Shown one piece after another: positions 13,992-64,000 of a DNA stretch of 64,000 nt. A program made the position numbers and the translations under genes. Position 1 is the stretch's first letter, and every line of letters starts with the position of its first letter. The notes under the pieces are model-generated. The model saw only the letters and a program-made list of their open reading frames with translations. It ran no database searches and had not been told where the DNA came from. This DNA is from Candidatus Eiseniibacteriota bacterium (GTDB lineage: Bacteria; Eisenbacteria; RBG-16-71-46; CAIMUX01; VGJL01), in contig CAWBWI010000003.1 of assembly GCA_963792585.1 (NCBI GenBank), positions 960,001 to 1,024,000 of the forward strand. The letters are read 5' to 3'.

Positions 13992-16223
13992 TCAATCGAT
14001 GCGCACGAGACGAACCGATTCCGCTTGGCCACCGCAGCGCAACCGCGCGAAGTAAATCCCACTGGGGACCCGGACGCCGCCCTCGTTGCGGCCGTCCCAG
14101 GAGAGGTCGGAAACGCCCGCCGGCATCGTCCCGTCGTGCAGCACCCGCGCTTCCCGGCCCTGGACATCATGGACCGAGAGGCGCACCGACATGGTCGTAG
14201 GCAGGTCGAGCCGCAGCACGGAGGGACCCGTCGACGGGTTGGTCATCGCGCTCAAGATCCTCGTCTCGGCCGCCACTCCGTCCTCCGCTCCGGCCGTGAA
14301 CCTATGCCGGGGCATGAGGATCAGTCCCTGGGCGCGATCGCTCAGTACGATGCAGTTGGACGCCAGCGCCACGCGAGTCGCACCCGCTGCATGCTGACCC
14401 TCGCGGAAGCCGATGTACGAGCCGCCGATCACATAAGGATGCGACGGGTCCGAGACATTGATGATGTAGATCCCTCCGCCGGCATCGCAACTGACATAGG
14501 CGATATCACCTTCGATCTGCACACCGCCCGCGCTGTTCGGTCTCTGTGCAAACGGCATCGTCTCCAAGGTTACCGGGTTCTCCGGGTTGGTGATGTCGAC
14601 GAACCACAGCTCCCCGCCCCACAAAGTCAGCAGCGCGAGGTTTCCGGACACCGCCATCGCCTCGGCGTACGGGACATCCTGGCCGTCCAAGGAAGCGATC
14701 TGGATCGGGGAGCTGGGATCGCTCACGTCGGCAACCACGAAAGTGGCGTCCACGGCCACGTAGAGATAGGAACCCTGCGCGGCGATTTCGCGGACTTCCC
14801 CCGTGGTCGGCAGCATACCGAGCGTGGTCGGGCTGCACGGGTCGGTCACATCGACCAGGTAGACGTTTCCCGATCGTGGCGCGACAAAGAGAGTGTTCCC
14901 CTCCAGGGCGATGTGGTCGGTAACGGCGTACTGAGGATCTTGCGCGCACCAATGGACGAAGTTCGGATTGAGCAGCCGACCGTAGTGGAGTCGTTGAAAA
15001 CCGCAAGCGAACATCGCGCTCGGTGTGACTTCGAGATCCGCGAATGCGTCCGCCAGGGGAATCCACCCGGTCGTGATCGGATTGCGCGGATCCGATGCGT
15101 CGACGACGCGAATCGAACCGCTCGGGTCGGTGAGGTAGATGCGGTTTCCGAGGACGTCCATGCCACTGAATCCGTCACCCTGGAGCAGGACCTCTCCGAG
15201 CGCATGGTCTTCGAGATTGACCCCACGATAGACCTCCAATAGCCCACCGCCCGAGTAGTAGGCGCGAATGAAGCACGCGCCGCCACCCTCGATCATGGCC
15301 AGATCCTCACCGCCGATGAGCTGCGTGCGCAGCACGGTCACGTCCCCAGGGTCCGAAACGTCGAGGATCGTCATCTGGCCATACTCGCCGACGGTGTACG
15401 CCACGTTCCCCTGGAGGACGATCCGGACGGGAGAGTCGATTTCTGAGATCCCACCCGCCCGGACCGGATGGCTTGGGTCCGTTACGTCGAAGTTGAACAT
15501 GCCCGACGTTGGCTCGGTGCTACAGGTGCGATAGCCGACATAGACCCGTCCGGCGGCCATCGCGACCCCGTGCACTTCACATTCGACATAGGTGCTCGAG
15601 AGTTGATGGGGAACGGAAGGATCCGCGAAGTCCACGAGGATCATGTCGCTGAACGAGGTGAGGCAGACGAGATCATCGTCGACCGCCATATTGTCAATGG
15701 CATACGCCGGCGCGAACGTGGCGAGAAGGGCGGGAGCGGTCGGCACGGAGACGTCGACCACGCGCAGCCGATCCAACGACTCCCGGATGTATGCCCGATT
15801 GCCACTGAGGGCGATCTGAACCGCCTCCGTTGGGTCCCCGAGTGTTCCTACAATTGCGGGGGAGCCCGGATCGCTCACATCGATGACGAGAAGGCCCGCG
15901 CCCCCGGACACGACATAGGCAAAGCCGTCTCGCACGACCAGGTCGGCGGGCGAGCCCGGCAGATTCAGCGTTCCGACGTGCGTTGGAGCGCCTGGGCCTG
16001 CAACATCCATTGCCTCGAGCCCCTGCGGAAGCAGAATGAAGGCGATTCCTCCGTCTTCATCTACGGCCCGGGGTACTTGATCGAACGACACGCTGCTCGA
16101 CCAATGAAACAGGGTCGAGTAGTCGATGCTCTCCGCGCGTGGTGATTGTGTCAGCGCGCCTCCCGCCACGACGATCGCGGCAACGATGAGCGCGATGCGA
16201 CACTTCTGAAACGGGGCATTCAT
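13992..16223 (-). CDS. Secreted LVIVD-repeat protein with C-terminal FlgD-Ig/T9SS-like domain
   Basis: Signal peptide; repeated GL.VIDVSDP..P; C-terminal NPS..P...VHDVQGR...WDGRNEGG..VPSGIYFARL. Confidence 0.85.
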   Translation of the reverse strand: MNAPFQKCRIALIVAAIVVAGGALTQSPRAESIDYSTLFHWSSSVSFDQVPRAVDEDGGIAFILLPQGLEAMDVAGPGAPTHVGTLNLPGSPADLVVRDGFAYVVSGGAGLLVIDVSDPGSPAIVGTLGDPTEAVQIALSGNRAYIRESLDRLRVVDVSVPTAPALLATFAPAYAIDNMAVDDDLVCLTSFSDMILVDFADPSVPHQLSSTYVECEVHGVAMAAGRVYVGYRTCSTEPTSGMFNFDVTDPSHPVRAGGISEIDSPVRIVLQGNVAYTVGEYGQMTILDVSDPGDVTVLRTQLIGGEDLAMIEGGGACFIRAYYSGGGLLEVYRGVNLEDHALGEVLLQGDGFSGMDVLGNRIYLTDPSGSIRVVDASDPRNPITTGWIPLADAFADLEVTPSAMFACGFQRLHYGRLLNPNFVHWCAQDPQYAVTDHIALEGNTLFVAPRSGNVYLVDVTDPCSPTTLGMLPTTGEVREIAAQGSYLYVAVDATFVVADVSDPSSPIQIASLDGQDVPYAEAMAVSGNLALLTLWGGELWFVDITNPENPVTLETMPFAQRPNSAGGVQIEGDIAYVSCDAGGGIYIINVSDPSHPYVIGGSYIGFREGQHAAGATRVALASNCIVLSDRAQGLILMPRHRFTAGAEDGVAAETRILSAMTNPSTGPSVLRLDLPTTMSVRLSVHDVQGREARVLHDGTMPAGVSDLSWDGRNEGGVRVPSGIYFARLRCGGQAESVRLVRID

Positions 16224-16432
16224 TGCGGTCACGGCGTCCTCCTCTCCCGTCCGGGTGGACACGCATCTTAGTCCGAGGGAATTATAGGCTTGCCGGCGCG
16301 GCAAGTACAGACAACGACGAAGCCGTCCGATGCCAGCCAGGATGGGGTTCTCGGTGATGAAGTTCTTGGGGCGACAGCCCCCAACCTCGGGTCACGAGAT
16401 CTCGTGAGGAATCGAAAACGCTGTGTGACTCT

Positions 16433-17914
16433 CTATAGGAGGATCATTCTACGCGTCTGGCTCACCTCCGCGGCGCCCAGTCTATAGAAGTAGCACCCCG
16501 CCGGGACACGGCGGCCTCTCTCGTCGAGGCGATCCCACTGCGCATCGAAGAATCCGGGCGCGCGTTCCGCATCGACCACTGTCCGTAGCAAGCGTCCCTG
16601 CGCGTCGAAGATGCGCAGTTGGACCTGCGACGGCCGCCCAATCGAATAGACGATCCGGGTCGAGGAGATCACCGGATTCGGGTAGTTACCGTACAGGGCC
16701 GTAATCCGAGGGGAGGTCTCGCTCGCGACACCCGAAGGGCCAAGGATCTCGCGAAGCGCTGTGATGAACGCCTGCATGTCCTCCATGGTCCCCGTGGAGA
16801 CGCGCAGGTGCTGCGACATTCCCCACCCGGTGCGCACATTGATGCCCCTGGCCGCCAGTTCCGCCGCCACTGGGCCTGCGCTTCTGCCGACGTTCACCAT
16901 GAAGAAGTTCGTCTCCGAAGGGATGTAGGTCAGACCCATGGAGCCGAACTCGGCGAAGCAGTAAGCCTTGGCCTGATCGTTGAGGGACACGGTGTCGCTG
17001 ATGTGCAGGCTGTCGTTGAGGGCCGCCCTGGATGCGTCCAGCGCCGGCCGGGAAACGGTTCCCCAGGTCTGCCATGCGCCGGCGGCGGCCATCCGATTCG
17101 CGGGGCCGACGGCATATCCGACCCGCACCCCCGCCAGGCCGAAGATCTTGGAGAAGGTGCGGATGACGACGACGTCCTTCCCCTGGCGCACGAGTTCGAC
17201 GGCCGAGGTGTAATTGGGATCGTGCACGTACTCGTGATAGGCCTCGTCGATGACCGTCACGACCCCCGACGGGAGGGAGTTCACGAAGGAGGCGACAGCG
17301 GACGCGGACAGAGCGGTCGCGGTGGGATTGTTGGGGTTCGTGAGGCCCACCGCGAAGGTGCCGCCGTCGACCTGCGAGGCCATGGCGTTCAGGTTGATGC
17401 GATGATTCGCGTCCAGCGGCACATAGCGGACGCTCGCGCCCATGAATGCGCAATCGGTGTCGAACTGCCCGTAGGAAGGGACCGGATAGATGACGTTTCC
17501 TCCCGGCTCGGCGAATCCCAGCGCGCAGAGGTGCAGCATCTCCGTGCCCCCGCAGCCGGCCAGTATTTGAGCGGTGCCCACCTGGTGAATGCCGGCCAGA
17601 TCCTGACGGAGGGACTCGGCGTACCAGTCGGAATATCGGTGCCCGAGATCCAGGCCTTCGCTCATGGCCGCCCGGGCCAGAGGCGAAGGTCCTAGAGGGT
17701 TCTCGTTGTAGCAGAGGCGGCCGATGTAGTCGCGCCACAGATCGACTGCGGCGGGCCCTGCGGGCGACGTTTGGGTGAGGAGCTGCGTTGCCCCCGACGC
17801 CGGTGCAAGGGGCAATTCGCTCAGTGCGAGGGCCGCGGTCCCCGCGGCCAGGCCGAAGAAGTTGCGGCGAGAGATACCGTGCGGTTCTCCAGAGGGGGGA
17901 GGGAACGCGTTCAT
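16433..17914 (-). CDS. HisC-like PLP aminotransferase with Tat signal and C-terminal FlgD-Ig/T9SS-like domain
   Basis: SRRNFF Tat motif; NENPLG, NPNNPT, IDEAY, RTFSKIFGLAGVRVG; tail NYPNP...IFDAQGR...WD...GRRVPAGCYFYRL. Confidence 0.88.
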   Translation of the reverse strand: MNAFPPPSGEPHGISRRNFFGLAAGTAALALSELPLAPASGATQLLTQTSPAGPAAVDLWRDYIGRLCYNENPLGPSPLARAAMSEGLDLGHRYSDWYAESLRQDLAGIHQVGTAQILAGCGGTEMLHLCALGFAEPGGNVIYPVPSYGQFDTDCAFMGASVRYVPLDANHRINLNAMASQVDGGTFAVGLTNPNNPTATALSASAVASFVNSLPSGVVTVIDEAYHEYVHDPNYTSAVELVRQGKDVVVIRTFSKIFGLAGVRVGYAVGPANRMAAAGAWQTWGTVSRPALDASRAALNDSLHISDTVSLNDQAKAYCFAEFGSMGLTYIPSETNFFMVNVGRSAGPVAAELAARGINVRTGWGMSQHLRVSTGTMEDMQAFITALREILGPSGVASETSPRITALYGNYPNPVISSTRIVYSIGRPSQVQLRIFDAQGRLLRTVVDAERAPGFFDAQWDRLDERGRRVPAGCYFYRLGAAEVSQTRRMILL

Positions 17915-20243: not shown

Positions 20244-22451
20244 CTACCGAATGACGACGACCGAGCGGGTAGCGTCCATCCCCGGCCCGCGCAGCCGCAC
20301 AAAGTAGGTCCCCGCCGCCACGGGTCGGTTCATGCCGTCGCGCCCGTCCCAGGTAAGCGACCGCCGACCGCTTTCCGAGATCTCCCCGTCGCCGAGGGTG
20401 CGGATCCTGCGCCCGGCCACGTCGAGCACCTCGACCGACGATGAGCCTCGAGTCGACTGCTGGAACTCGAGCCGCACCGGGCACCGGGTCGGATTCGGTT
20501 CGATCGTGAACAAGCGGGACGCCGCTTCTTCTCCTGGGACCGAGGCCGTCAAGCGGTGCAGCGGCACGACCTGAATCCCTTCCCTCTCGTCCGCGATGAA
20601 GATGGACTCGGGACCGACATCCATTCCGTAGACCTGACCCGCAGTATCCACCTCGCCGATCAGCTGTGGGTTCGAGGGATCGGGTCCGAGGTCCCATAGC
20701 TGCATGCCGAGATCGAGCCGAGCCGTATAGAGGATCGACCCTATGACGGCGCAATCGAGGGTCACGAAATTCGGATGCACGCTCGCGACCACCGGATGGT
20801 CCGGGTCGGCGACATCCGCGACCCACATGCCGGAATACCCGTCCGCGATGTATGCATACTGCCCGCTGACCGCCACGCCGCCTGCATATCCCCAGGATTG
20901 GAGGGGTGACGACAAGGTGCCCCGCCCCACGGGATGCGCCGGGTCGCTGACGTCCACGATGGCCAACTCGTGCCAGGAGCCTCCCAGGTAGACGAAGGGC
21001 CAGGCGACGTCCACCCCACGCGCCTCGCCGATCGAGCCCGGGTAGGTCGAGAGGACGACCGGATGGGCCGTGTCCGTCGCATCGACGACGACGAGATTCA
21101 CGCTGCCGTTCGCGATGAAGACGTAGTTGCCGGAAACCGCGAGATCGTACTCGTACTCGCCCGGCATCGCCGTGTGTGACAGGTAGTGCGGCTGGTCGGG
21201 GAGCGTGACATCGACAAGGTGAAGCCCGGTGGTCCCGAGGACGTAGGCGAGATTCCCCACGAGCACCAGATCGTACGCGTCTCCGGCCTCCGGAACTTGC
21301 GCGACGATCCCGCCCCCGACCAGGTCGATCACCGAGAGGCCCTCGCCACGATCCGCCACGAGCGCATAGTGATCAACGAGCGCAACATCCTCCGCGAAGT
21401 CCCCGGTCGGGTACCGGTCCAGGATCGGGACCCCTCGCGGATGCGAGACGTCGACGATGTTGAGGCCCCAGATGTCGTCGGCCACATAGGCGATGCCGTC
21501 CTCCACCGCGACATCCGTGACGTCCCAGAAGCCTCCGGCCGTATGTCCGACCACCGTCGGGAGAGCGGGATCGCTCACGTCGATCGTCTCGAGGCTCATG
21601 TTCGTCCAGAAGCCCGCGGTGCAGGCATACACATACGGATAGGCGGCGTCGATCGCGCGCGCGATCGGATACTGGAGGGAATGAGAGGAAACCTCCGTAG
21701 GGTTCGCGGGGTCGGAAACGTCGTAGATCGCAAGCTGGCTCAGGTTCTGGTTCGCCTGGCGGATCGCATAGAGCATGCCTCCCTCGAAAGTCAGGCCGCG
21801 AATCCCGGATCCGCCGATCCGGGAAATCTGGACGACATGCGTCGGATCGCTCGCATCAAGAATGTACAAGTATGGTGGAGCCGCCAGGAAGACGGTCGTG
21901 CCGGAGACCTCGACCGCAGTTCCGGCGCTCGCCCCGAAGGCGCCCACGGCGGTTCCTTGCCCGATGACGGAGCCGACGTCGATCACCCTCAGGCCACCGG
22001 CATCCGCGACGTAGGCGTACCCGCCCTCCACGGCGACATCATTGGCGTTGCCCGACACCGCCACGCGGTCCGTGATGGTAGGGCTGGCCGGAACGACAAT
22101 GCGGACGATATCGAGACCGCGGGATCCGACGGCGACGTAGGCATAGAAGCCCGAGACCGCGATGGCCGTCGCCTGTTCGGAGAGGGTGACATGTCCAACC
22201 GTCCAGGGCGCCGTGGGGACGCCGGTGTTGATCACCCAAAACTGGTGGCCGGCCACGAACGCCCGGCCCCCGAGGGTGGCGACGGCAGTCGCTTCATCGC
22301 CTCCATCGTCCACGAAGTGGTTGGCGACGATTCCCTTCAGGAAGTCGCCGTAATCGATCGACTCCGCCCGCGCGATCGAGGGTGGGGTCGCGATCATCCA
22401 GAGCAGAGAGAGGGGGGCGAGGGCGCGCACGAAAGTGCTTCCAACACGCAT
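20244..22451 (-). CDS. Secreted LVIVD-repeat protein with C-terminal FlgD-Ig/T9SS-like domain
   Basis: Signal peptide, many AYVAD..GL.IVDVS.P repeats, PNP...DVAGR...WDGRDG...VAAGTYFVRL. Confidence 0.88.
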   Translation of the reverse strand: MRVGSTFVRALAPLSLLWMIATPPSIARAESIDYGDFLKGIVANHFVDDGGDEATAVATLGGRAFVAGHQFWVINTGVPTAPWTVGHVTLSEQATAIAVSGFYAYVAVGSRGLDIVRIVVPASPTITDRVAVSGNANDVAVEGGYAYVADAGGLRVIDVGSVIGQGTAVGAFGASAGTAVEVSGTTVFLAAPPYLYILDASDPTHVVQISRIGGSGIRGLTFEGGMLYAIRQANQNLSQLAIYDVSDPANPTEVSSHSLQYPIARAIDAAYPYVYACTAGFWTNMSLETIDVSDPALPTVVGHTAGGFWDVTDVAVEDGIAYVADDIWGLNIVDVSHPRGVPILDRYPTGDFAEDVALVDHYALVADRGEGLSVIDLVGGGIVAQVPEAGDAYDLVLVGNLAYVLGTTGLHLVDVTLPDQPHYLSHTAMPGEYEYDLAVSGNYVFIANGSVNLVVVDATDTAHPVVLSTYPGSIGEARGVDVAWPFVYLGGSWHELAIVDVSDPAHPVGRGTLSSPLQSWGYAGGVAVSGQYAYIADGYSGMWVADVADPDHPVVASVHPNFVTLDCAVIGSILYTARLDLGMQLWDLGPDPSNPQLIGEVDTAGQVYGMDVGPESIFIADEREGIQVVPLHRLTASVPGEEAASRLFTIEPNPTRCPVRLEFQQSTRGSSSVEVLDVAGRRIRTLGDGEISESGRRSLTWDGRDGMNRPVAAGTYFVRLRGPGMDATRSVVVIR

Positions 22452-52060: not shown

Positions 52061-54787
52061 ATGAAACACCCCTGGATCGGTTTGGGTCTGGGTGTCCTCC
52101 TCATCATGGGCTTCGCCATGGGGCTTGCCGTGGGGCCGTCGAGAGCGGCGGACACGGCTACCCCCGTGCTCATGAAGCCGGGGGCCGGATCGAATCCGCT
52201 CGCAGTACAGCACTGGCGAGATGAGATCTGGATGCAACCGCCGAACCTCGAAGGACTCATTGCCAGTTCCGAGATCATCTCTGAGTTCAATCTGGACACG
52301 GAGATCGCAACCGACTTCCTTCTGACATATGGCGCGACGATCCAGCAAGTCCGCTGGTGGGGCGCCTACTACAACTGGAGCGAAGGCGACGCGCATGTCA
52401 CCAGCTTCCGGATCCGTTGGTTCGAATCCTCGGGCTGCCTGCCCGGCGTCCTGATTCGCGAGGACCTCTTCAACGACAATTGCAATGAGACGTTCATCGG
52501 CTACCAGGGCGGCTACTACCCACTCTATGAGTACTCGACCGTGGTCCCGGATCTGGCAATCCCGGCGGATACGCGCTACTGGTTCGGAGCAACCGGTACT
52601 CATGTATTCCCACCTCAATGGGGACGCCTGGAAGCTGCCGGCGCGATCGTCGAATGCGAAGCTGCCTTCCGCAGCGAGTATTTCGGCTTTCCTGAATGGA
52701 CCCCGGCAGTGGACGTGTTTGGGGTGATATTCGATGCCTCCTTCGCGCTGTATGCAGACGTGGGACCCGTCGAAGCCTGCTGCTATGCCGACGGCACCTG
52801 CCTGATCGAGGACCCAGTCGACTGCGAAGGCCACGGAGGGGCGGCGCAAGGTCCGGGAACCAACTGCTCACCCAACCTCTGCCCGCAGCCGGACCCACAG
52901 GCTTGCTGTATGGACGACGGCACCTGCCGGTTCCTTTCGGTGCCCGCCTGCGATCAGGTGCATGGAACCGCGCAGGGCGCGGGTACCGACTGCGACCCCA
53001 ATCCCTGTCCACAACGCACGGCATGCTGTTTCGAGGGTGGGGATTGCTTCGTGTTCTTCCCAACGGACTGCATCGCCCAGGGCGGGGAGCCGCAGCCGCC
53101 CGACACGCCGTGCGTCCCCAATCCGTGCCCCGATCAGGCGCAGGCCTGCTGCTTCCCCAGCGGCGACTGCCAGATCGACTCTCCGAGCGCCTGCTTGCGC
53201 ATGGGGGGAACGCCTCAGGGAATCGGGACCGACTGTTTCCCGAATCCCTGCCCGCAGCGGGAGGCGTGCTGCTTCCCCGGCGGCCAATGCATGGACCTCA
53301 TGGTGGAGGATTGCGCCGCGCAGGGCGGCCAGTCTCAGGGGGCCGGCTCGGATTGCGAGACGCATCCATGCCCGGTCGCCTGCTGCTTGGATGACGGACG
53401 CTGCGTGATGCAATCGGTCCCGTCGTGCCGGGCGGAAGGTGGAATCCCGCAGGGCGGCGGGAGCGTATGCGACCCGAACCCCTGCCCGATGCCGCGCGCC
53501 TGCTGCTTCCCCATGGGGACGTGCAGGATCCTGGTGCCCGCCGAATGCGAGGCCGCGGGGGGCGCTCCGCAAGGGGACGGAACGGTTTGCGATCCGAATC
53601 CTTGCGCGTTGCCCGAAACGCCGCGCGCCTGCTGCTTTGCCGATCACCACTGCGTGGTGCTCACGGTCGCCGAGTGTGTTGCGCAGTCCGGAATCGCGAT
53701 GCTCGCCGGCACGCTGTGCGAGCCGAATCCCTGCGAACCGGACGCGATTCCAAATGCATGCTGCTTCGGCGACGGAAGCTGCCGGCTCCTGCTCCAGGAT
53801 GCATGCATCGCGGAGGGCGGCCTTCCGCAGGGCGCATGCACGACCTGCGACAACACACCCTGCGCGCAGCCGACGGCATGCTGCTTCCCGGACGGACACT
53901 GCGTCCTGCTTCTGGAGGATGCCTGCTCGGCACAGGGGGGCACCAGCTCCGGCATCCCGTACTGCCAGCCGAACCCCTGTCCGCAACCGGAGGCCTGCTG
54001 CTACCCGGACGGTCACTGCGTGATGGTCCTCTCCGCGGCCTGCCGTCAAGCCGGCGGCGACCCGCAAGGCTCGGGAACCGATTGCGACCCGAACCCGTGC
54101 CCGGTCCCGCAGGCCTGCTGCTTCACGATGGGCACCTGCCGGATCTTGACGCCCGAGGCCTGTTTGCGTGCGGGCGGAATGCCGGCGGGAGTGGGCGTCG
54201 CGTGCGATCCGAATCCGTGCGCGCCTCCGGATGTGCCGCGCGCCTGCTGTCTGGGGGATCAGACCTGTCAGATCCTCTCGGTTGACGAGTGTGTCCGCAT
54301 CGGCGGACTGCCGCTCCTGGCCGGGGCGACCTGCGACCCGAATCCTTGTACCGAACAGCCGGTCCCGCACGCCTGTTGCTTCAACGACGGGCACTGCGTG
54401 CTGACCCTCAGTGATGACTGCACGCAGCTCGGAGGTCTGCCCCTGGGGGCGTGCGTCACCTGCGATCCGAATCCGTGCCACTCGGGCGGATTCGGCGCCT
54501 GCTGCTTCCCGGACGGGACATGTGTCTACACCTCCCCCACCGGATGCGACGGCGCCGGAGGGGTCTACTACGGTGACGGGACCACCTGCGATCCCAACCC
54601 CTGCTCCGTCGGTCAGGTCGGTGCGTGCTGCCTGCCGGACTTTAGCTGCCTCATTGCGACGGGCGAGGAGTGCGACACGCAGAATGGCATCTACCAGGGC
54701 GATGGGACGCCATGCGAACCCAATCCCTGCGCGGCGATTCCGACCCGCAACGCGACCTGGGGTCAGATCAAGGGGCTGTTCCGATGA
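52061..54787 (+). CDS. Secreted Cys-rich repeat protein A (16 modules, TWGQIKGLFR tail)
   Basis: RBS, signal peptide, N-terminal domain, 16 CC-x5-C-x7-C-x~13-C-x4-C modules. Confidence 0.85.
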   Translation: MKHPWIGLGLGVLLIMGFAMGLAVGPSRAADTATPVLMKPGAGSNPLAVQHWRDEIWMQPPNLEGLIASSEIISEFNLDTEIATDFLLTYGATIQQVRWWGAYYNWSEGDAHVTSFRIRWFESSGCLPGVLIREDLFNDNCNETFIGYQGGYYPLYEYSTVVPDLAIPADTRYWFGATGTHVFPPQWGRLEAAGAIVECEAAFRSEYFGFPEWTPAVDVFGVIFDASFALYADVGPVEACCYADGTCLIEDPVDCEGHGGAAQGPGTNCSPNLCPQPDPQACCMDDGTCRFLSVPACDQVHGTAQGAGTDCDPNPCPQRTACCFEGGDCFVFFPTDCIAQGGEPQPPDTPCVPNPCPDQAQACCFPSGDCQIDSPSACLRMGGTPQGIGTDCFPNPCPQREACCFPGGQCMDLMVEDCAAQGGQSQGAGSDCETHPCPVACCLDDGRCVMQSVPSCRAEGGIPQGGGSVCDPNPCPMPRACCFPMGTCRILVPAECEAAGGAPQGDGTVCDPNPCALPETPRACCFADHHCVVLTVAECVAQSGIAMLAGTLCEPNPCEPDAIPNACCFGDGSCRLLLQDACIAEGGLPQGACTTCDNTPCAQPTACCFPDGHCVLLLEDACSAQGGTSSGIPYCQPNPCPQPEACCYPDGHCVMVLSAACRQAGGDPQGSGTDCDPNPCPVPQACCFTMGTCRILTPEACLRAGGMPAGVGVACDPNPCAPPDVPRACCLGDQTCQILSVDECVRIGGLPLLAGATCDPNPCTEQPVPHACCFNDGHCVLTLSDDCTQLGGLPLGACVTCDPNPCHSGGFGACCFPDGTCVYTSPTGCDGAGGVYYGDGTTCDPNPCSVGQVGACCLPDFSCLIATGEECDTQNGIYQGDGTPCEPNPCAAIPTRNATWGQIKGLFR

Positions 54788-54840
54788 GAACGATCAATGA
54801 TGAACTCCATATTCCTCCGCAGATGACGAGGAGGTGTCCG

Positions 54841-55983
54841 ATGAGGACCGTATTGGTGCTGATGGGAATCCTGCTGCTCCTGACGACCCCGGCGCTCGCC
54901 GGTCGTAACGCGAACGGCGCGCTCGTCGTGCACACGGACGACGCGATCAACTACACGGCGAACGAGAACTACTGCTCGACAGTGCTGCCGACCGTCTGCG
55001 ACCAGCTGGGAACGCAGTCGAACAAGCCGGTGGAGGAGCAGGAGGCGGTGATCTGGTTGCTGGCGGCGTTCGTGCCCGAGTCGAGCCCGGGCGTGACCGC
55101 GATCCAGTTCGGGATCCACCACAACCTGCCGTCCAACCAGGGGCGCTTCTCCGGCTACGCCGCGTGCGGGCCCGGTCCTCTGGAGCTGCCCGATGCGGGC
55201 TGGCCGGAGCCGAATGACTGCGGCAACCTGGTCGCATACAGCGGGCCAGTCTATGACCATCTCATGAAGTTCTACTGGTTCGCCGCGATCGGCGTTCAGG
55301 ATGGCTTCTTCGGGACGCGCACCTATCCGAGCACGAACGAGGCGAAGTTCGTCGATGACGGCAATCCGCCGGTCGAGGACCTGATCTATGCCTTCGGCAC
55401 CATGCGATGGGGCGCGCCCGGCCTGAACCAGTGCCCGCACTACGATGGCGGCGCGTGCTGCTTCCCGGATGGTCACTGCACGATCCTGGTGGCGGATGAC
55501 TGCGATGCTCAGGGCGGTGTCTTCCAGGGGATTGGATCTCCGTGCGATCCGAATCCCTGCCCCGTCTCCGGTGGCGCGTGCTGCTTTGTGGACGGTCACT
55601 GCGAGATCCTCACGCCCGATACTTGCGTGGGCTACAACGGCGTATGGCAGGGACCGGAGACACTCTGCGATCCGAACCCGTGCTCGCAGCCTCCGCAGGC
55701 ATGCTGTTTCCCGAGCGGCAATTGCTCGTTCATTCCGCCGGCGGAGTGCGAGCAGGCGGGCGGGACGCCGATGGGATTCGGTTCGACCTGTGATCAGATC
55801 GCCTGCAAGGCGCCGGCCTTGGGCGCGTGTTGTCTCAATGAGGGAACCTGTGTCGTGACCGACGAGGCTGATTGCGCGGCTCAGGGCGGATCCTTCCTCG
55901 ATGGCGTCGCATGCGAGCCAAACCCCTGTGACAATCCGGTCGCGCCCACGACGTGGGGTCAGATCAAGGCCAGCTTCAGGTAG
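54841..55983 (+). CDS. Secreted Cys-rich repeat protein B (4 modules, TWGQIKASFR tail)
   Basis: RBS GAGGAGG, signal peptide ending ALA, AGRNANGALVVH N-domain, 4 modules. Confidence 0.85.
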   Translation: MRTVLVLMGILLLLTTPALAGRNANGALVVHTDDAINYTANENYCSTVLPTVCDQLGTQSNKPVEEQEAVIWLLAAFVPESSPGVTAIQFGIHHNLPSNQGRFSGYAACGPGPLELPDAGWPEPNDCGNLVAYSGPVYDHLMKFYWFAAIGVQDGFFGTRTYPSTNEAKFVDDGNPPVEDLIYAFGTMRWGAPGLNQCPHYDGGACCFPDGHCTILVADDCDAQGGVFQGIGSPCDPNPCPVSGGACCFVDGHCEILTPDTCVGYNGVWQGPETLCDPNPCSQPPQACCFPSGNCSFIPPAECEQAGGTPMGFGSTCDQIACKAPALGACCLNEGTCVVTDEADCAAQGGSFLDGVACEPNPCDNPVAPTTWGQIKASFR

Positions 55984-56068
55984 TCGGGCCCTGTCGAGCT
56001 GATGATGGCCCCTCCTTCAAGCATACATGAGAAGGAGGGGCTGTCCTCATTGAGCTAGGGAGCGAAAC

Positions 56069-58165
56069 ATGAAACACGTATGGATCAGCCTGAGTCTTGG
56101 CGCCCTCCTCGTCACGGGGCTCGCCGTGGGGTGCTCGCAGGCGGCGCAAGCCGCGACCCCCGTGCTCATGAAGCCGGGCAGCGGATCGAATCCGCTCGCC
56201 GTGGAGCACACGCGTAACGAGATCTGGATGCAGGCCCCGAACATCGAAGGGCTCATCGCGAGTTCTGAGTACATCGCGGAGTTCGGCCTCGAGTCCGAGC
56301 TCGCGAACGACTTCCTGCCGATGTACGACGCGAGGATCCAGCAAGTCCGCTGGTGGGGCGGGTACTACGGCTGGAGTCCGGGCGACCCGCCTGTCACCAG
56401 CTTCCGCATCCGGTGGTTCGAAGACTCGGGTTGCCTGCCGGGCACCCTCGTCCGCGAGGACATCTTCGACAACGACTGCAACGAGACCCTCATCGGTTAC
56501 CAGGACGACTACTACCCGATCTATGAATACTGGACATGGGTCCCGGACCTGTGGGTCTCGGCGAACATGCGCTACTGGTTCGTACCGACCGGCACTCACA
56601 CCTTCCCGCCCCAATGGGGGTGCCTCGAAGCTGCCGGCGGGGTCGTCGGATGCGAGGCGGCCTTTCGCAGCGCCTACTTCAGCTATCCCAACTGGACCGA
56701 GGCGAACGAGGTGTTCGGCAACAGCATGGACACCTCCTTCGCGCTCTTGGCGGACCTTGGACCTCTCGTCGCCTGCTGCTACGAGGACGGAACGTGCCGA
56801 ATAGAGGACGCCGGTGACTGCGAGGGCCACGGAGGGTCGCCGCAAGGAGCCGGCAGCGACTGCTCGCCCAACCTCTGCCCGCAGCCGGAGCCTCAGGCCT
56901 GTTGCATGGACGATGGGAGCTGCCAGTTCCTCTCCGTGCCTGCGTGCGGGCAGGCGCATGGAATCCCGCACGGACCGGGCACGCAGTGCGATCCCAATCC
57001 ATGCCCACAACCCACGGCATGCTGCTTCTCGGGCGACCATTGCCTCGTGATGGTCCCGGTGGACTGCACCTCGGGCGGGGGAGTGCCCCAGCCGCCCGAC
57101 ACGCCCTGCGACCCCAATCCGTGTGCCGACTCGCCGCGGGCCTGCTGCTTCCCGAACGGGGACTGCAGGATCTATCCGCCGAGCGATTGCGTGGACTTGG
57201 GCGGATCCCCTCAAGGATTCGGGACCGACTGCGAGCCGAACAACTGCCAGCAGCCGCAAGCCTGCTGTTTCCCGGATCGACCCTGCGAGGATCTGTTCGA
57301 GAATGTCTGCACGGCACAGGGGGGCGTGCCTCAAGGGTGGGACTCGAACTGCGAGGCGAATCCATGCCCGGTGGTCTGCTGCTTCGATGACGCGCACTGC
57401 ACGGTGCAGACCATGGCTTCGTGTTGGGCCGACGGGGGGGTGCCGCATGAGGAGCTGATCTCCTGCGACCCGGACCCGTGCCCGCAGCCGGGCGCATGCT
57501 GCTTCCCGATGGGGACGTGCAGGATCCTGGTGCCGTCCGAGTGCGAGGACGCAGGCGGCGCTCCGCAAGGAAACGGGACGACCTGCGATCCGAATCCTTG
57601 CGCGTCGCCCGACATTCCACGCGCCTGTTGCTTCGCCGATCATCACTGCGAGGTTCTCTCGGTTGCGGAGTGCGTGGCGCAGTCCGGAATCGCGATGCTC
57701 GCGGGCACGCCGTGCGATCCGAATCCCTGCGAGCCCGCCCCGCTTCCGCATGCCTGCTGCTTCGGTGACGGAAGCTGCCGGCTCTTGTTGCAAGATGCAT
57801 GTATCGCAGATGGCGGCCTGCCGCTGGGCGCCTGCACCACGTGCGACAACACCCCCTGCCCGCGGCCGGAAGCCTGCTGCTTCCAGGACGGCACCTGTCA
57901 GTACTTGCTACCCGAGACGTGCATCGAGTGGGGCGGGACCCCACAGGGCCCAGGGACGACTTGCGAAACAGCATTGTGCAGTCCGCCTCCCGTTGGTGAA
58001 GCCTGTTGCTTCGACGATGGCCACTGCGAGTTCACGACTGCCGAAGATTGTCGCGGGGCGGGCGGGTACCCGCAGGGCGAAGGGACGACGTGCGAGACAA
58101 CTGTGTGCCAGGCTGTTCCGGTTGATAAGACGACCTGGGGTCAGATCAAGGGGCTGTTCCGATGA
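56069..58165 (+). CDS. Secreted Cys-rich repeat protein A' (paralog of A, 11 modules, TWGQIKGLFR tail)
   Basis: N-domain and modules 1-9 colinear with A. Confidence 0.85.
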   Translation: MKHVWISLSLGALLVTGLAVGCSQAAQAATPVLMKPGSGSNPLAVEHTRNEIWMQAPNIEGLIASSEYIAEFGLESELANDFLPMYDARIQQVRWWGGYYGWSPGDPPVTSFRIRWFEDSGCLPGTLVREDIFDNDCNETLIGYQDDYYPIYEYWTWVPDLWVSANMRYWFVPTGTHTFPPQWGCLEAAGGVVGCEAAFRSAYFSYPNWTEANEVFGNSMDTSFALLADLGPLVACCYEDGTCRIEDAGDCEGHGGSPQGAGSDCSPNLCPQPEPQACCMDDGSCQFLSVPACGQAHGIPHGPGTQCDPNPCPQPTACCFSGDHCLVMVPVDCTSGGGVPQPPDTPCDPNPCADSPRACCFPNGDCRIYPPSDCVDLGGSPQGFGTDCEPNNCQQPQACCFPDRPCEDLFENVCTAQGGVPQGWDSNCEANPCPVVCCFDDAHCTVQTMASCWADGGVPHEELISCDPDPCPQPGACCFPMGTCRILVPSECEDAGGAPQGNGTTCDPNPCASPDIPRACCFADHHCEVLSVAECVAQSGIAMLAGTPCDPNPCEPAPLPHACCFGDGSCRLLLQDACIADGGLPLGACTTCDNTPCPRPEACCFQDGTCQYLLPETCIEWGGTPQGPGTTCETALCSPPPVGEACCFDDGHCEFTTAEDCRGAGGYPQGEGTTCETTVCQAVPVDKTTWGQIKGLFR

Positions 58166-58218
58166 GAACGATCGATGATGCACTCCATACTCCTCCGCAA
58201 GATGCGAGGGGGTGTCCG

Positions 58219-59247
58219 ATGAGGACCGCTTTAGCGCTGATGGGAATCCTGCTGCTCCTGACGACCCCGGCGCTGGCCGGCAGGAACGCGAACGGCGCAC
58301 TGGTCGTGCACGTAAACGATCCCGTGACATACCGGGGCACCGAGGACTTCTGCACCTCCGCTCTTCCAACGGAGTGCGCGGATCTCGTCACGACGAGTCA
58401 CGCCACCGGAGAGGATGTCGCCGTAATCTGGTTTCTGGCCGCGTTCCGGGCGGAGGCGAGCCCGGCCGTCACCACGATCCAGTTTGGGATCGAACACAAC
58501 CTGCCGCCTGGGCAGGGCTATTTCATCCGATACTCGGCGTGCGGCCCCTCGCCCCTCGAGTTGCCGGACACGGGTTGGCCTGAGACCGGGTTTGGAAATC
58601 TCGTCGCGTACAGCGGGCCCGTCTACGATCACCTCTTCAAGTTCTACTGGTTCGCGGTCTTCAACGAGGACAGCCAGAGCTACCTTGGGACACGAACATA
58701 TCCCAACACGAACGAGGCGAAGTTCGTCGACGACGGAAACCCACCCATAGAGGACTTGATCTTCAACTTTGGCACTGTTCGTTGGGAGGTGCCGGGAGAG
58801 AACCACTGCCCGCAGCCGCTCCCTGCTGAAGTCGCGTGCTGCTTCCCGGATGGAACCTGTCTCTTCATCGTCGAGGGCGACTGCATCGAGCAGGGTGGGG
58901 CATCTCAGGGACCAGGCTCATCATGCGATCCGAATCCGTGCCCGCAGCTGGAGGCATGCTGCTTCCAGGACTGGCGTTGCGAGATGATGCTGCCCGCCGA
59001 TTGCACGCAGGCCGGCGGCGTCGCTCAGGGCCCCGGCACGAACTGCGATCCGAACCTATGCTTTGTCGGCGATGGGGAGGCTTGCTGCTTCGAGGACGGC
59101 CATTGCGAGTGGATTCTGGCAGGTGACTGCGTTGCGCTCGGCGGGCGATCTCCGCAAGGAGCGGGAACGACCTGCGAGACCGTCATCTGCGAAACGGTCC
59201 CGATCGAGAACACGACCTGGGGGAGCATCAAGGCGCGCTTCCGGTAG
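58219..59247 (+). CDS. Secreted Cys-rich repeat protein B' (paralog of B, 3 modules, TWGSIKARFR tail)
   Basis: N-domain clearly homologous to B. Confidence 0.85.
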   Translation: MRTALALMGILLLLTTPALAGRNANGALVVHVNDPVTYRGTEDFCTSALPTECADLVTTSHATGEDVAVIWFLAAFRAEASPAVTTIQFGIEHNLPPGQGYFIRYSACGPSPLELPDTGWPETGFGNLVAYSGPVYDHLFKFYWFAVFNEDSQSYLGTRTYPNTNEAKFVDDGNPPIEDLIFNFGTVRWEVPGENHCPQPLPAEVACCFPDGTCLFIVEGDCIEQGGASQGPGSSCDPNPCPQLEACCFQDWRCEMMLPADCTQAGGVAQGPGTNCDPNLCFVGDGEACCFEDGHCEWILAGDCVALGGRSPQGAGTTCETVICETVPIENTTWGSIKARFR

Positions 59248-59357: not shown

Positions 59358-60620
59358 CTACCGCGCCTTCCGCTTCCGGTAGGTCCGCGCCAGTTCGAGG
59401 AAGATCTCGAGGTCGCGGTCCAGGTGCGACTGGGTCCCGTCGAAGTAGAAGATGCGGATCGGGATCCCGTCGTGGTCGCGGCTGATCTTCGGGTAGATCG
59501 CCTCCGAGACGATCCCGTTCATGCAGGTGAAGGGGCTGATGTCGACGATCCCGTCGCATCCCTTCTGCCAGTAGTAGATTCCCTTGCCCGTGTTCATCAC
59601 CATCTCGCCGTAGACGCCCTCGGAGGGCAGGTACGGCTCGGCGAGATCCATCAAGAGGCCGATCCGCGCCGGCTCCTCGCGTCCCTCGAAGAGATGATGG
59701 AACGGGCGCGGCCAGCGCGTGCTCGTCGCGCCGCTGGAAGGTCTCCTTCAGGTACGCCGCGAGCATCTTCCCGCTCCACCGCTGGCCCGCGTACGGGATC
59801 CACTTCTTCCGCTGCTCGAGGTTCGTGTAGTAGACCCACTCGGCGATGTCCGAGATCCACGCCTCGCCGCCGTGTTCCTCGATCCTGCGGACGAGATCCT
59901 CGTTGCGAGAAGGTGTTCAAGCCGGCAGAAGATCTCGCCGACCACGCCGATCAGGAGGCGCTCCTCGTCGCGCCGCGGGATCGCCGTGAAGCGCGGCCGC
60001 CGCGCGCTCCATCACCTCGCGCAGGCGCCGCAGCGATTCCTGCGTGGAGATGCCGGGCATCGCGAGGACGTCGCAGGTCTCGCGCAGCGACGTCTCGTAG
60101 AGCGCATCGCACGCGCCGCGCTCCCGTCTCGTACGGCCGCACCCGCAGGAGCGCCTTGCGGAGCAGGTCGCTCACGAGGAGCGCACGCCAGCCCGCCCGT
60201 TGCACCCCCTTGCCGCCCGCGTTGTCGTAGCCGGTTCCGCTGGTGGGGGAGAAGACCATCGCCTCCTCCGCGCCGACCGAGTCGAGCACCTTGCGGAGGA
60301 AGGGCGCGTACTGCCCGAAGCGACAGGGCCCGGGCGCGGTCGGCATGAAGAAGGCGAGCTTCTCGGGGCGCGCGCCGGGCGCCAGGACGATCCGCAGCGA
60401 CGTCGCCGAGGGTGACCCGCTCGGGGAAGCACTCCTCTCCCGAGGTGTAGCGGCCGCCCAGCTCCAGCGTCTCTGCGTCGGATGGAGGGAAGGGGTGGGT
60501 GTCGATTCCCGCGGAGCGGAACGAGGCGGCCACGCAACGCGCCGCGCTGAAGCTCATGCGCGGGATGTAGAGGGTGCGATCCCGGAGCGAGGGGCCGCTC
60601 GCGGCGCGGTCGTTGCGCAT
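59358..60620 (-). CDS. Activase-associated protein (DUF2229-like / 2-hydroxyacyl-CoA dehydratase-related), frameshifted
   Basis: LYIPRM, YTSGEECFP, MPTAPGPCRFGQY, VGEIFCR, ISPFTCMNG, FDG over several frames; ATG overlaps the upstream TGA. Confidence 0.72.
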
Positions 60621-63600
60621 CAACTCAGGTCGTGACATGCGTTGCACCCCGGGTCTCCCGAACACTGACTGCATCCACCGCCCTGCGCGACGTCGGCCGT
60701 GATCGTCGTGGTTTCCTGCGCTGCGCGCACCGGTGCAGCCGCGGCCGCGGCTCCACCCCCGCCCCGCTCATCGGCCCCAGCCGCGGCCGATCGGCTCCAC
60801 CGTCGCAGGATCCCCTGGCTGTCGAGATACGCCTCGATGCGGGTCAGCATCCCGGCGTCGTTGGCGTGCCCGTCGAACTGGAGCGACAGGAAGGGTCGGC
60901 CGTAGGCGTCGCGCACGAAGTGCTTGATGTAGGAATCGGGCCCGCACTTGAAGTTCGTGACATAGATCATGTGGAGATTCGGGTAGGCGCTCGCCGCCCG
61001 CGCGGCGGCGAGGATCTTCCGGCCGTATCCCCAGTACATGTTCGCGTTGATCGCCTCGATGTCGCTGTCGTCCGCCGCCGAGGAACTCGAGCGGCAGGAC
61101 GTTGACGCCGTAGAGGTCGCGCAGCTTGCGCGCGACGTCGAGGCTCGCGATCGGATCGAATAGATTGTACGGCCGGCCGACGAGCAGGACCGCCGGCTCG
61201 CCGCGTCTCGACCAGGCGCTCGAGCGCGCGCTCGCCCGCCTCGCGAATCCGCGTCGTGGAAGCGATCGTGCGCCTTCTCCGCCGCGACGAGGGCCCGCAC
61301 GATCTCGCCCTTGCGGATCCCGCCGCCGCAGGACTTCGTGTAGCGGACCGACCAGCGCCTGCCGCCCTCCGCGGAAGCGGATCAGCGGGTGGAGGATCCG
61401 GTCGGCGTGCTCCTCGAACGACTGCGGCGCTCTGGACGATGAAGGGCAGCGTCGTCCCCCACGGGCAGTAGAAGCTCTGGATCTCGCGGTGGGTCGCCTC
61501 GGAGTTGATGTAGTTCGGCAGCCAGACGAAGGCCGTCGGCGTCGATCTCCAGCGCGTTCGCGATCTGCCCGTGCGCGATCTGGATCGGGAAGCACGGCTC
61601 GGCGACGGAGGCCTCGACGCCGGCCACCGCGATCGCGCGGTTGGTCTCGGGGGTCGCGCGCACGCCGAAGTCGAGCGCGCGGAAGAAGGCGTTCCAGTAG
61701 GGGAAGCGATCGTGGAAGTAGATCGCGCGCGGCATGATCATCCGGCCGCGCCGCCCCTCGGACTCGGGTCGTAGCCGTCGAGCAGCCACTCCTTGCGCAG
61801 GCGGACGAGGTCGTCGATCACGGGTCGGAAGTCGACCTTCGCGCGCCGCCGGTATCGATCGCCGCACTGGTCGCCCCAGTAGGTCTTCTCGTCCTCGACG
61901 TGGAACTCCTGCATCTCGCAGTGATTCTCGCAGCCGCTGCAGGTGAACTCGCGGATCGTGTGCTCGACCGCGCCGAGGTCCCAGCCGCGGAAGCGGGTGC
62001 CGGCGTTGACGCGCCGCGTCTTCTCCCACGCGAGAAGGGCGGCGCCGACCGCGCCCACGACCCCGTTGTACGGCGGGACGACGATCTCGCGATCGAGGAT
62101 CTGCGCGAAGGCCGCGGCGACGGCGTCGTTGTAGGCCGTCCCGCCCTGGAAGAAGATCGTGCCGTCGATCTTGCGCCCGCGCACGACGCGGTTGATGTAG
62201 TTCGTCGCGACCGAGAGGGCGAGGCCGGCCAGGAGGTCGTTCGTCGCGCGCCCCGCGCTGCTGGTAGGCGTTGACGTCGCGCTCCATGAAGACCGTGCAG
62301 CGCTCGCCGAGGCGAACCGGGCTCTCCGAGGCCAGGGCGCGCAGGGCGAACTCGTCCTTGATGCAGACGCCCAGCTCCTCGGCCCGCTCCTCGAGGAAGG
62401 AGCCGGTGCCGGCGGCGCACGCCTCGTTCATCGCGAAGTCGACCACGATCGCCGTCGTCGATCCGGATGAACTTCGCGTCCTGCCCGCCGATCTCGAAGA
62501 TCGTGTTGACCTCGCAGTCGAGCATCGTGCGCGCGATGAACGCAGCCCCGGTCTTGTGGGCCGTGATCTCGTCGTTGATCGTGTCGGCGCCGACCAGCTC
62601 GCCGATCAGCTCACGCCCCGATCCGGTCGTGCCCACGCCGCGGACGCACGGATCCGATCGCCGAACTCCTCGCGGACCTGGGCGAGGGCCGCGGTGACGA
62701 CTTCGACGGGTCGCGCCTGCGTGCGCGTGTAGATCTCTTGCACGACGCGTCCCGCATTGTCGAGCAGGACGACGTTCGTGCTGACGCTGCCGATGTCGAT
62801 CCCGATCGTCACCTCGACCGGCGGACCGCCGGCGGGCATCTCGAAGGGGATGCACGCGGTCGCGCAGGGTGAGGACCTTGTCCATCGAGAGGGGACGCGC
62901 GCTGGGAATGGTCGACGCGTCCTGCGTCGCCGCGACGTGCGCGCGCGCGCCCGCATCGTGATGGCTCGTGGTCGAGGGCGGCGCGGACCGCGCAGCCGAT
63001 CGCGGCGTGGGCGAAGGCGTGCGCGGGGATCACGAGGTCGCTCGTCGAGCTCGAAGGTCTCGCGCAGCGCGCGGACGACCATCTCGTTGGCCGCCACGCC
63101 GCCGACGAAGAGGACGGGCGGACGCGGGGTTCTTTCCCTTGGCGACCGCGGCGCGGAAGTTGCGCGCCACCGTCTCGCAGAGGCCCCGCAGGACCTCGGG
63201 CGGGAGATACCCCTTCTGCTGCGCGTGGATCATGTCGCTCTTGGCGAAGACCGAGCAGCGGCCGGCGATCTTGGCCGTCCGCGGTCGCTCCGGCCGCGAT
63301 CCTTCCGACGTCCTCGATGTCGTACTGGAGGCGCCCGGCCTGCTGATCGAGGAAGGAGCCGGTCCCGGCCGCGCAGTCGCCGTTGGTCTGGTAGTCGGCG
63401 ATGCCGAGATCCCCGCTCTGCGCGTCGCGCTCGAAGAAGAGGATCTTGGAGGATTCGCCGCCGATCTCGAAGAGGGTGCGGACGTCGGGGGCGATGGCCC
63501 AGGTCGCGGCCGCCAGAGCGCGGAACTCGTTCTCGCGGGTCATGTCGACCAGCGAGCGGAGCAGGGCCGAGCCGGAGCCGGTGGCGCGCACGGCGTCCAG

Positions 63601-63855: not shown

Positions 63856-64000
63856 GGGGGACGTCCTCCAGGATCGCGCTGCGGCTCGATCCACTACGCG
63901 GCCAACCGATAAGCAGGATAAGCGGGGGGGCGGACGTGCGCAAGCTCTTGCGCGACGCGAAGGTAAGGGAGTTCGATCAGGCGCGGGCGACGAAAATGGA

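Follow-up and report, generated by a model that had tools for sequence, protein, structure and literature searches.

Four adjacent genes in the window (the whole stretch of 64,000 nucleotides that was analysed) encode exported proteins that carry two kinds of N-terminal domain and end in one and the same short tail. What is this shared tail for? The features concerned are as follows.

52061..54787, + strand: A1, 908 aa; signal peptide, A-type domain, Cys-rich repeats, TWG tail
54737..54784, + strand: TWG tail of A1 (final 16 codons, stop excluded)
54841..55983, + strand: B1, 380 aa; signal peptide, B-type domain, Cys-rich repeats, TWG tail
55933..55980, + strand: TWG tail of B1
56069..58165, + strand: A2, 698 aa; signal peptide, A-type domain, Cys-rich repeats, TWG tail
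58115..58162, + strand: TWG tail of A2
58219..59247, + strand: B2, 342 aa; signal peptide, cohesin-fold domain, three Cys-rich repeats, TWG tail
59197..59244, + strand: TWG tail of B2 (modelled helix spans mature residues 314-321)
13992..16262, - strand: contrast gene, secreted, ends in a FlgD-type T9SS CTD, no TWG tail
16433..17914, - strand: contrast gene, exported, ends in a FlgD-type T9SS CTD, no TWG tail
20244..22430, - strand: contrast gene, secreted, ends in a FlgD-type T9SS CTD, no TWG tail

A C-terminal tail on many exported proteins

The first-pass annotation had reported four genes with a signal peptide and the tail, and three other window proteins with a FlgD/T9SS-like end. Both observations held: the four + strand ORFs have exactly the quoted ends and signal-peptide-like starts, and the three FlgD-type CTD genes all lie on the - strand. 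The tail described there as P-x4-TWGxIKxxFR is present exactly, but the true tail is longer, with the 16-residue consensus [TV]-P-[TVI]-x-x-[TS]-[TS]-W-G-x-[IVL]-[KR]-x-x-[YF]-R-stop, and its penultimate aromatic residue is more often Y (61%) than F (37%).

The B-type domain of B2 has the beta-sandwich of a cohesin: its best VIA-align match was 2vo8 (Z 11.4, rmsd 2.7, 127 aligned), and the top 18 rows were all cohesins or cohesin-like modules (Z 11.4-8.5). The fold of B1 was assigned by homology to B2; a Pfam scan of the window proteins gave no cohesin match for the B-type domain. The A-type domains of A1 and A2 matched only DUF7901 in Pfam and NCBIfam, weakly and below the cut-off, and the A domain matched no PDB sequence. 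A gene adjoining two B-type genes elsewhere in the genome (C1:1440068) encodes a protein with what we take to be dockerin-like repeats and no Pfam match. A promoter and terminator scan of the four-gene locus gave no signal exceeding shuffles.

About 115 ORFs of the host genome (84% complete) carry the tail. Among 87,112 six-frame ORFs, 77 of 80 matches to [TS]WGx[ILVM]K sat 4-8 residues ahead of the stop, and a fuller core motif was terminal in 113 of its 119 matches. The back-translated motif with a stop matched the genome 98 times and its reversed control 0 times. This terminal clustering places the tail far beyond chance. The claim that it is kept on unrelated N-terminal domains extends to the whole genome, where 97 tailed ORFs with a signal peptide fall into 43 N-domain families. 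A signal-peptide heuristic was positive for 77 of 84 tailed genes and 1172 of 3148 controls, so that the tail is not equally common on cytoplasmic proteins.

The signal had been called uncharacterised, and Pfam and NCBIfam were indeed empty for the proteins and for the tails alone; six 30-aa tails had no match in either at E<=10. The literature covered, which lies largely outside the subscription journals, yielded no paper that deals with the tail or with the operon described below. In the B2 model the tail forms an eight-residue helix. Likenesses to the dockerin recognition helix and to WDG, a motif within FlgD domains, were dropped, as the spacing differs. No sortase, exosortase or rhombosortase was prominent among the recurrent neighbours of tailed genes; in genomes with few tails the recurrent upstream membrane gene encodes no sortase but an ABC permease (BPD_transp_2), accompanied by the ATPase gene.

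Two parallel C-terminal systems had been proposed for this lineage. The tail and the FlgD-type CTD are mutually exclusive in that 0 of 115 tailed ORFs overlap the 295 FlgD ORFs or the 285 proteins with a FlgD/T9SS end, and none matches the FlgD-CTD profile. Either can nevertheless follow the same kind of domain: for 42 of 97 tailed proteins the genome also encodes a T9SS-tagged paralogue. Cargo size also separates them, with a median of 234 aa for tailed and 557 aa for T9SS-tagged proteins; only 4 of 97 tailed proteins exceed 500 aa, against 151 of 261 T9SS-tagged ones. This ceiling suggests a pore.

A barrel-lipoprotein operon and a predicted receptor

A candidate partner of the tail is encoded in an operon with the conserved order outer-membrane barrel, lipoA, lipoB in 16 of 16 fetched loci. 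In the host genome it lies outside the window and is split by the assembly:

C5:35355-36788, - strand, and C2:1-2476, + strand: barrel-lipoprotein operon; C2:1922-2473 encodes the soluble NTF2 domain of lipoB

In a set of 71 Zixibacteria-type genomes, lipoA is present in 23. An unlinked small Ig protein ending in TWG[KR]IKALF[KR] is present in exactly the same 23, while PorU is present in 71 of 71, the set having no T9SS-free members. (Ten strict pattern matches occurred in this set; those in G180, G186 and G221 were set aside, being non-genic or due to chance.) A single-gene PorU tree was built for 60 of these genomes, which are incomplete; along it, presence changed state four times, two of the changes being nested in clades with support 1.0. 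This amounts to at least 3-4 joint losses of the lipoproteins and the tailed partner. A single partner protein takes part in this co-loss, and it may be a fixed fourth subunit and not cargo.

Of the genomes from the window's own phylum, 143 of 151 encode NTF2 lipoproteins, as do 57 of 61 from a second phylum rich in tails. Tails with no lipoprotein detected occurred in six genomes of the own phylum and, with one tail each, in 4 of 61 of the second. Re-testing five of those six located the barrel gene at a contig end in two and found no barrel in three. One further genome, G151, had a tail at a contig edge and no lipoprotein detected.

LipoA, lipoB and the barrel matched no Pfam or NCBIfam family above cut-off. 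The lipoA model (pLDDT 90.7) is a cone-shaped alpha+beta fold with a pocket, and all of its top 50 VIA-align rows were NTF2-like (best Z 16.3, rmsd 2.0, 121 aligned), as was its Foldseek match (E 9e-8). LipoB is a lipoA paralogue, mostly without a tail; its NTF2 fold was assigned by homology, and it has a weak SnoaL_3 match. The natural C-terminus of lipoA is the same helix as the tail, at 158-163 in the model. It reads SW[AGS]x[FL]KxxYR or similar in Zixibacteria-type genomes and, in the phylum of the window, takes the form of a degenerate TWG helix. Such an end is retained in 122 of the best 150 distant homologues, and in tandem NTF2 proteins (P0120, P0124, L426) the helix is internal and follows each domain. 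An acidic export signal of the kind described for Bacteroidota lipoproteins was not evident past the lipobox in most lipoA and lipoB rows. The barrel has about 600 residues. One barrel scanned had OMP_b-brl as its sole Pfam match, below cut-off, and none in NCBIfam; the barrel profile matched one PDB sequence, an autotransporter barrel, weakly (E 3e-4). Clusters resembling the operon are labelled Rhodothermota, Ignavibacteriota, Cloacimonadota and Bacteroidota.

A complex was predicted for one receptor and one tail, lipoB and that of B2. It scored 0.93 (runs 0.93, 0.92, 0.93), the best of three controls 0.26. At least 96% of contacts were common to the runs, with a partner pLDDT of at least 72. 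Of solved pairs 116 of 157 attain this mark, and of mismatched pairs 2 of 215, which for our own alignments is a rough guide only. B2 residues 307-322, including the tail Pro, make up the entire predicted lipoB interface. The lipoB contact columns are conserved in a 32-row alignment (E/D76 32/32, D/E174 32/32, D60 27/32). The complex is akin to a split protein whose halves rejoin, lipoA having the helix in cis, and such cases tend to pass. The tail had been called a recognition or processing signal; recognition is now favoured over processing, because the proposed reader offers a pocket for binding and is not a protease.

One tail on unrelated exported proteins, the predicted fit to a pocket and the co-loss of operon and partner together make it likely that the tail serves as an address label, and that the system which reads it, for the export or display of proteins, is so far undescribed. 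More specifically, at a probability of roughly 0.55, we propose that it is a shared C-terminal tag, a donor helix that fills the lipoB pocket, and that the barrel complex exports or displays the uncleaved cargo. Export would begin through Sec by the N-terminal signal peptide, as the heuristic indicates. The tail derives from the C-terminal helix that completes lipoA, an origin visible in the sequences, with packing in cis suggested by the model. Tail-less lipoB would then take the cargo tail in trans, with Trp and Ile in a predicted hydrophobic pocket and the tail Lys/Arg predicted to face an invariant acid. Finally, the barrel may carry or display the cargo in parallel to T9SS, which would handle larger proteins. 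Small cargo would in this way be captured after Sec export and moved to, or held on, the cell surface with its tail uncut.

A wider scheme is tentative, at somewhat less than even odds. Barrel, lipoA and lipoB may form an outer-membrane system, so far undescribed, for secretion and display in FCB-related phyla, whose signal is a 16-residue donor helix completing the receptor fold. It may have grown from one Zixibacteria-type partner to >100 Eisenbacteria-type cargoes, taking small proteins while large ones go via T9SS, and tailed NTF2 paralogues could chain into short stalks by helix exchange.

What is new here is the candidate reader of the tail, lipoB as predicted from the model, with its operon. 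Described short C-terminal sorting tags combine, to our knowledge, a membrane helix with a protease, and the T9SS tag is a folded domain; sorting by a short helix that stays uncut and is read through completion of a lipoprotein fold would be a different principle. The tail is common in at least three phyla, and the hypothesis would assign a function to an unannotated operon. The organisms are uncultured, but the proposed receptor residues make the idea testable, for which a synthetic peptide and a single small domain in soluble form would do. As a tool for protein display, a tag of 16 residues and its 20-kDa binder could be of use as well.

Alternative explanations

The tail might bind lipoB for docking only, the barrel merely holding or flipping both lipoproteins, with cargo tethered in the periplasm or docked after crossing the outer membrane by another route, much as dockerins dock on cohesins. 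This is unlikely, though the binding and co-loss evidence fits it equally well. The nearest named look-alikes of the barrel are generic beta-barrels (one cluster has a 10% SlipAM share), three lipoproteins in the genome carry the tail, and so does a protein that presumably has a thioredoxin-like fold and is periplasmic (C2:319467). However, many cargo domains have T9SS-tagged paralogues, which presumably points to the surface, yet the cargo carries no further signal for the outer membrane. The 84% complete genome yielded no type II secretin, the one secretin found lying in a type IV pilus cluster, and the cargo size ceiling favours a pore.

Distinctly less probable is that the tail acts in Eisenbacteria-type phyla as a short T9SS signal, which a PorV paralogue reads and the second sortase, PorU2, cuts and anchors, with the lipoprotein pocket serving only lipoA and one ancestral partner. 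SprA, PorV and PorU are all present in the host genome, eight PorV genes pass the cut-off, and the tail begins where the pre-CTD linker begins in paralogues. PorU2 (C1:1423386-1427618, C25 domain) lies near tailed genes across the phylum; they are 3-22 kb upstream of it in the host genome and at least 10 others. It was found in 138 of 151 own-phylum genomes, near-universal and thus uninformative there. As a required partner PorU2 was rejected: a search of five genomes with the operon and a tailed partner detected it in none. The tail is helical, unlike T9SS CTDs, which are beta-sheet domains of 40-82 aa with motifs B, D and E and a cut consensus PT/GI (PMC11969387). In 75% of tails Pro stands where the small residue follows the T9SS cut, the register being inferred. 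Pro at this presumed P1' argues against PorU cleavage and surface-glycan attachment. The predicted interface spans the whole tail, that Pro included.

The tail could also be a non-specific amphipathic membrane anchor, as is the C-terminal helix of E. coli PBP5. W, I/V and Y/F share one face of the predicted helix with K/R flanking, but only eight residues are helical, tail presence tracks a protein operon, and the last ten residues of the Zixibacteria partner are near-identical in 120 of 120 homologues although its Ig domain falls to 32-50% identity in distant ones; this reading is very improbable.

That the tail merely caps the structure of Cys-repeat proteins, suggested by repeats directly before it in all four window proteins (4/4), has next to no probability and is refuted as a general explanation, since 75 of 115 tailed ORFs lack repeats (40 have them) and 19 of 295 FlgD proteins have repeats and no tail.

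Comparison with known systems

The tail resembles the T9SS type A CTD (TIGR04183, PF18962; here of the FlgD_ig PF13860 type), a swappable C-terminal tag on Sec-exported proteins, found in the same genome, on the same cargo domains and at the same post-linker position. It differs in being 16 residues and helical, not a 40-82 aa beta-domain with motifs B, D and E. Nor does it track PorU (23 versus 71 of 71 genomes); its candidate reader is an NTF2 lipoprotein, cleavage is not indicated, and its cargo is much smaller.

Tripartite sortase signals (LPXTG, PEP-CTERM, GlyGly-CTERM, MYXO-CTERM; Haft, 10.1101/2023.06.07.544157) are likewise short C-terminal signature tags with a terminal Arg on many unrelated exported proteins. 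The tail had been held to differ from the first three, and it does: it has no transmembrane segment, no basic cluster and no curated-model match, and no cognate intramembrane protease occurs among the neighbours examined. The motif stops eight residues past W with K/R inside it, and a TM-like segment beyond residue 45 was seen in 4 of 89 called tail genes.

In the donor-strand complementation of chaperone-usher and type V pili, an incomplete fold is completed in trans by a terminal peptide beside an outer-membrane barrel, as predicted here. The donor of the tail system would be a helix with a short strand, however, and the acceptor an NTF2 pocket; the cargo comprises >40 unrelated families, and no polymer is indicated.

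Dockerins dock on cohesins, a non-covalent and modular docking of secreted proteins like that proposed for the tail, and the B-type cargo domain has a cohesin fold. The tail, in contrast, has no calcium-binding repeats, no acidic loop in its consensus and no Pfam match, and its acceptor would be NTF2-like.

In Slam / type XI secretion, where the SlipAM barrel has an N-terminal TPR domain, the barrel gene lies beside cognate lipoprotein genes, as in this operon. The one barrel scanned here had no SlipAM match, and a genome-wide peptide tag takes the place of a single adjacent cargo.

The tail as a C-terminal tag of secreted proteins

The first-pass annotation had described four genes of the window as sharing a C-terminal tail, here called the TWG tail and 16 residues long. 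All four are real ORFs in the same orientation, with the C-termini quoted there:

52061-54787: A1, N-domain type A
54841-55983: B1, N-domain type B
56069-58165: A2, N-domain type A
58219-59247: B2, N-domain type B

In both A-B pairs (54784-54841 and 58162-58219), an in-frame ATG, 19 codons 5′ of the B start, overlaps the A-gene stop (ATGA), with a similar leader, MRTI[ND]D; translational coupling is possible.

In the source genome (G000, contigs C1, C2, etc.; 5.4 Mb, 84% complete; window at C3:960001-1024000), a six-frame search for [TS]WGx[ILVM]K gave 80 matches, of which 77 sit 4-8 residues ahead of a stop. The core motif was terminal in 113 of 119 matches, and a looser rule gave 115 tailed ORFs, 89 of them called as genes. 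The consensus (n = 114), in which T/S, W, G, I/V/L and K/R were imposed by the search rule, has P at -6 in 75%, Y/F in 98% and R in 93%, and then the stop. By our own heuristic, a signal peptide was present in 77/84 tailed called genes versus 1172/3148 controls. Among 18 heuristic-negative tailed ORFs, ten were copies of secreted paralogues that are either fragmentary or mis-started, one shows a signal peptide when read from a later start, and seven had no match; no intact cytoplasmic protein could be recognised among them.

The 97 tailed proteins with a signal peptide fall into 43 N-domain families, and Cys repeats occur in only 40 of the 115 ORFs, so the tail is not confined to a Cys-repeat family. 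The C-terminus of 83 B2 homologues is the tail in 72, FlgD in 2 and something else in 9. In the B2 model (pLDDT 94), one domain adopts the cohesin fold (Z 11.4, rmsd 2.7, 127 aligned) and residues 314-321 form a helix at the C-terminus. No Pfam or NCBIfam model matched the tail, which argues against an already described sorting-signal family, and no description was found in the literature searched. The tail is real, and is categorically new if the receptor link discussed below holds.

The proposed mutual exclusivity with the FlgD-type C-terminal domain (CTD) of the T9SS was also confirmed: this domain occurs in 295 ORFs of G000 (285 terminal), none of them among the 115 tailed ORFs. For 42 of the 97 tailed proteins, a same-genome paralogue carries a FlgD end instead; this holds for the window's A and B domains alike. 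Tailed cargo is smaller than FlgD cargo (median 234 vs 557 aa; >500 aa in 4/97 vs 151/261). One protein might be an adaptor between both routes:

C3:1272738-1273190 (-): L178, 150 aa, with signal peptide, lone FlgD-type CTD and a tail-like motif 9 residues before the C-terminus

T9SS is present in all genomes examined for it. G000 has PorU, eight PorV above cut-off, alongside 17 Peptidase_C25 matches, and SprA in at least four ORFs (C4:15479-21688, -). The SprA split is probably a sequence error because similar breaks are frequent across the assembly. A 1392-aa outer-membrane-like protein (C1:1083564-1088458) matched SprA very weakly (17.8 bits) and is followed by a variant-tail gene. In the window, a FlgD CTD is combined with a twin-arginine-type leader (16433-17914, -); one gene, presumably acyl-CoA dehydratase activator-like, is in many frameshifted pieces (59358-63999, -); and a ~270-aa ORF (34403-35197, +) resembles a distant one at C1:648272-649099 (-), possibly an insertion-sequence gene.

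Range of the tail and a barrel-lipoprotein operon

Phylum labels follow submitters' record titles, our own phylum being termed Eisenbacteria-type after most titled motif-bearing records. A strict DNA pattern was found in 140/151 own-phylum genomes (controls 0-2 per genome), 12/12 of a small second phylum, 53/61 Krumholzibacteriota-titled and 9/71 Zixibacteria-titled genomes. The synteny of a tailed lamin-tail-domain gene (C2:75375-76043) is kept even where genomes have only 1-4 tails; it lies 3′ of the genes for two exported proteins without annotation and one FlgD-LTD protein (L156, L161, L163-L167, L169, L172, L173, L042).

A reader of the tail was sought where tails are rare. Ten strict-pattern matches in the Zixibacteria-type set comprised three non-genic or chance matches, one contig edge, five copies of one small Ig protein with a signal peptide, adjoining rex, and the end of one lipoprotein. 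This lipoprotein, lipoA, belongs to an operon whose genes run outer-membrane barrel, lipoA, lipoB; the last is a lipoA paralogue that stops just short of the tail. The order recurred in 16/16 fetched own-phylum loci. In these loci a degenerate TWG helix, ~7-18 residues past a WxD strand, forms the end of lipoA; lipoB mostly lacks the helix, and some copies carry the full tail on a longer linker.

C5:35355 (-) and C2:1-2476: own-genome operon, split by the assembly
C2:291916-293914: three lipoprotein paralogues, full tail on a longer linker

The fold predicted for lipoA belongs with the NTF2-like proteins (Z 16.3, rmsd 2.0, 121 aligned), of which the best matches are 6-15% identical. Above cut-off, the barrel matched no Pfam or NCBIfam family; the clusters that resemble it are nameless and labelled Cloacimonadota, Ignavibacteriota and Bacteroidota. 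A lipoprotein profile search gave 2397 cluster representatives (E<=0.001), and a helix-like end is kept in 122 of the best 150. Tandem lipoproteins (P0120, P0124, L426) repeat the TWG helix after each of two or three NTF2 domains; from these sequences, therefore, the helix is native to the domain and completes it.

NTF2 lipoproteins occur in 143/151 and 57/61 genomes of the two tail-rich phyla. None matched in six own-phylum genomes with tails; in five of these re-tested, the barrel gene reaches a contig end in two (one with 21 tails) and was not found in three (88-94% complete). Nor did any match in four Krumholzibacteriota-titled genomes and genome G151, with a single tail each.

Among 71 Zixibacteria-type genomes, all with PorU, 23 have lipoA, with tail-less lipoB 3′ in 22 and the barrel 5′ in 22, both gaps being contig ends. 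Exactly these 23 also have, at an unlinked site, the small Ig gene as a full-length copy with TWG[KR]IKALF[KR]; elsewhere, four weaker Ig matches that were inspected have T9SS-type CTDs at their ends. A barrel profile that detects the gene in positives gave no match in five of five lipoA-negative genomes. In a PorU tree covering 60 genomes (20/23 positive, 40/48 negative), the joint state changes at least four times, with two negative groups nested with positives inside support-1.0 clades and a weaker fourth placement. This co-loss concerns one protein, whose last ten residues are near-invariant in 120/120 homologues and which may be a fixed subunit.

Predicted seating of the tail and a proposed export route

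We modelled lipoB (184 aa; alignment of 32 rows) in complex with the C-terminal 32 residues of B2 (alignment of 56 rows). The predicted complex scored 0.93, 0.92 and 0.93 against 0.26 for the best of three controls, with at least 96% of contacts common to the runs and partner pLDDT of at least 72. The calibration mark, reached by 116/157 solved versus 2/215 mismatched pairs, is only rough for our own alignments; moreover, lipoA has the helix in cis, so that the pair resembles split-protein halves, which tend to pass. On B2, the predicted interface coincides exactly with the conserved tail (307-322): K318 contacts E76, Y54, S79, A80 and M83, W314 contacts L126, V143 and D174, and I309-T313 run along lipoB 139-143. 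Positions 76 (E/D) and 174 (D/E) are acidic in 32/32 rows. The model shows fit of the tail to lipoB rather than cellular binding; that the lipoB family binds the tail is quite likely.

Tailed cargo would be exported by Sec and then captured, its tail seated in the lipoB pocket, and would pass or be displayed through the barrel. The tail would stay uncleaved because T9SS cuts PT/GI-like sites, according to the available text of PMC11969387, and its Pro at the matching position lies within the predicted interface. We give this full export-or-display reading a probability of about 0.55. Docking at lipoB with no export through the barrel would equally accommodate the predicted complex, and we consider it unlikely because the cargo domains have T9SS-tagged paralogues and no other outer-membrane signal, the cargo has a size ceiling, and a type II secretin was not found in G000. 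A route through PorU2, which is present in 138/151 own-phylum genomes and lies near tailed genes in G000 and ten others, is less probable still, as PorU2 was not found in five of five operon-positive Zixibacteria-type genomes. PorU2 scores under both PorU cut-offs. It lies in a conserved block (C1:1436000-1446000 and 1423386-1427618; L048-L050, L106, L154, L170), near what we take to be rluD-ruvX-mltG, with tailed cohesin-like genes and a secreted Ig protein whose repeats are dockerin-like, and the two could form a cohesin-dockerin pair.

As the first-pass annotation held, the tail is distinct from signals of the PEP-CTERM, LPXTG and GlyGly-CTERM type; having no membrane helix, it falls outside the tripartite signals as defined in the available text of 10.1101/2023.06.07.544157. 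It resembles the T9SS CTD in role and differs from it in fold, and is not a member of that family. The chemistry of its proposed fold completion is like that of donor-strand complementation.
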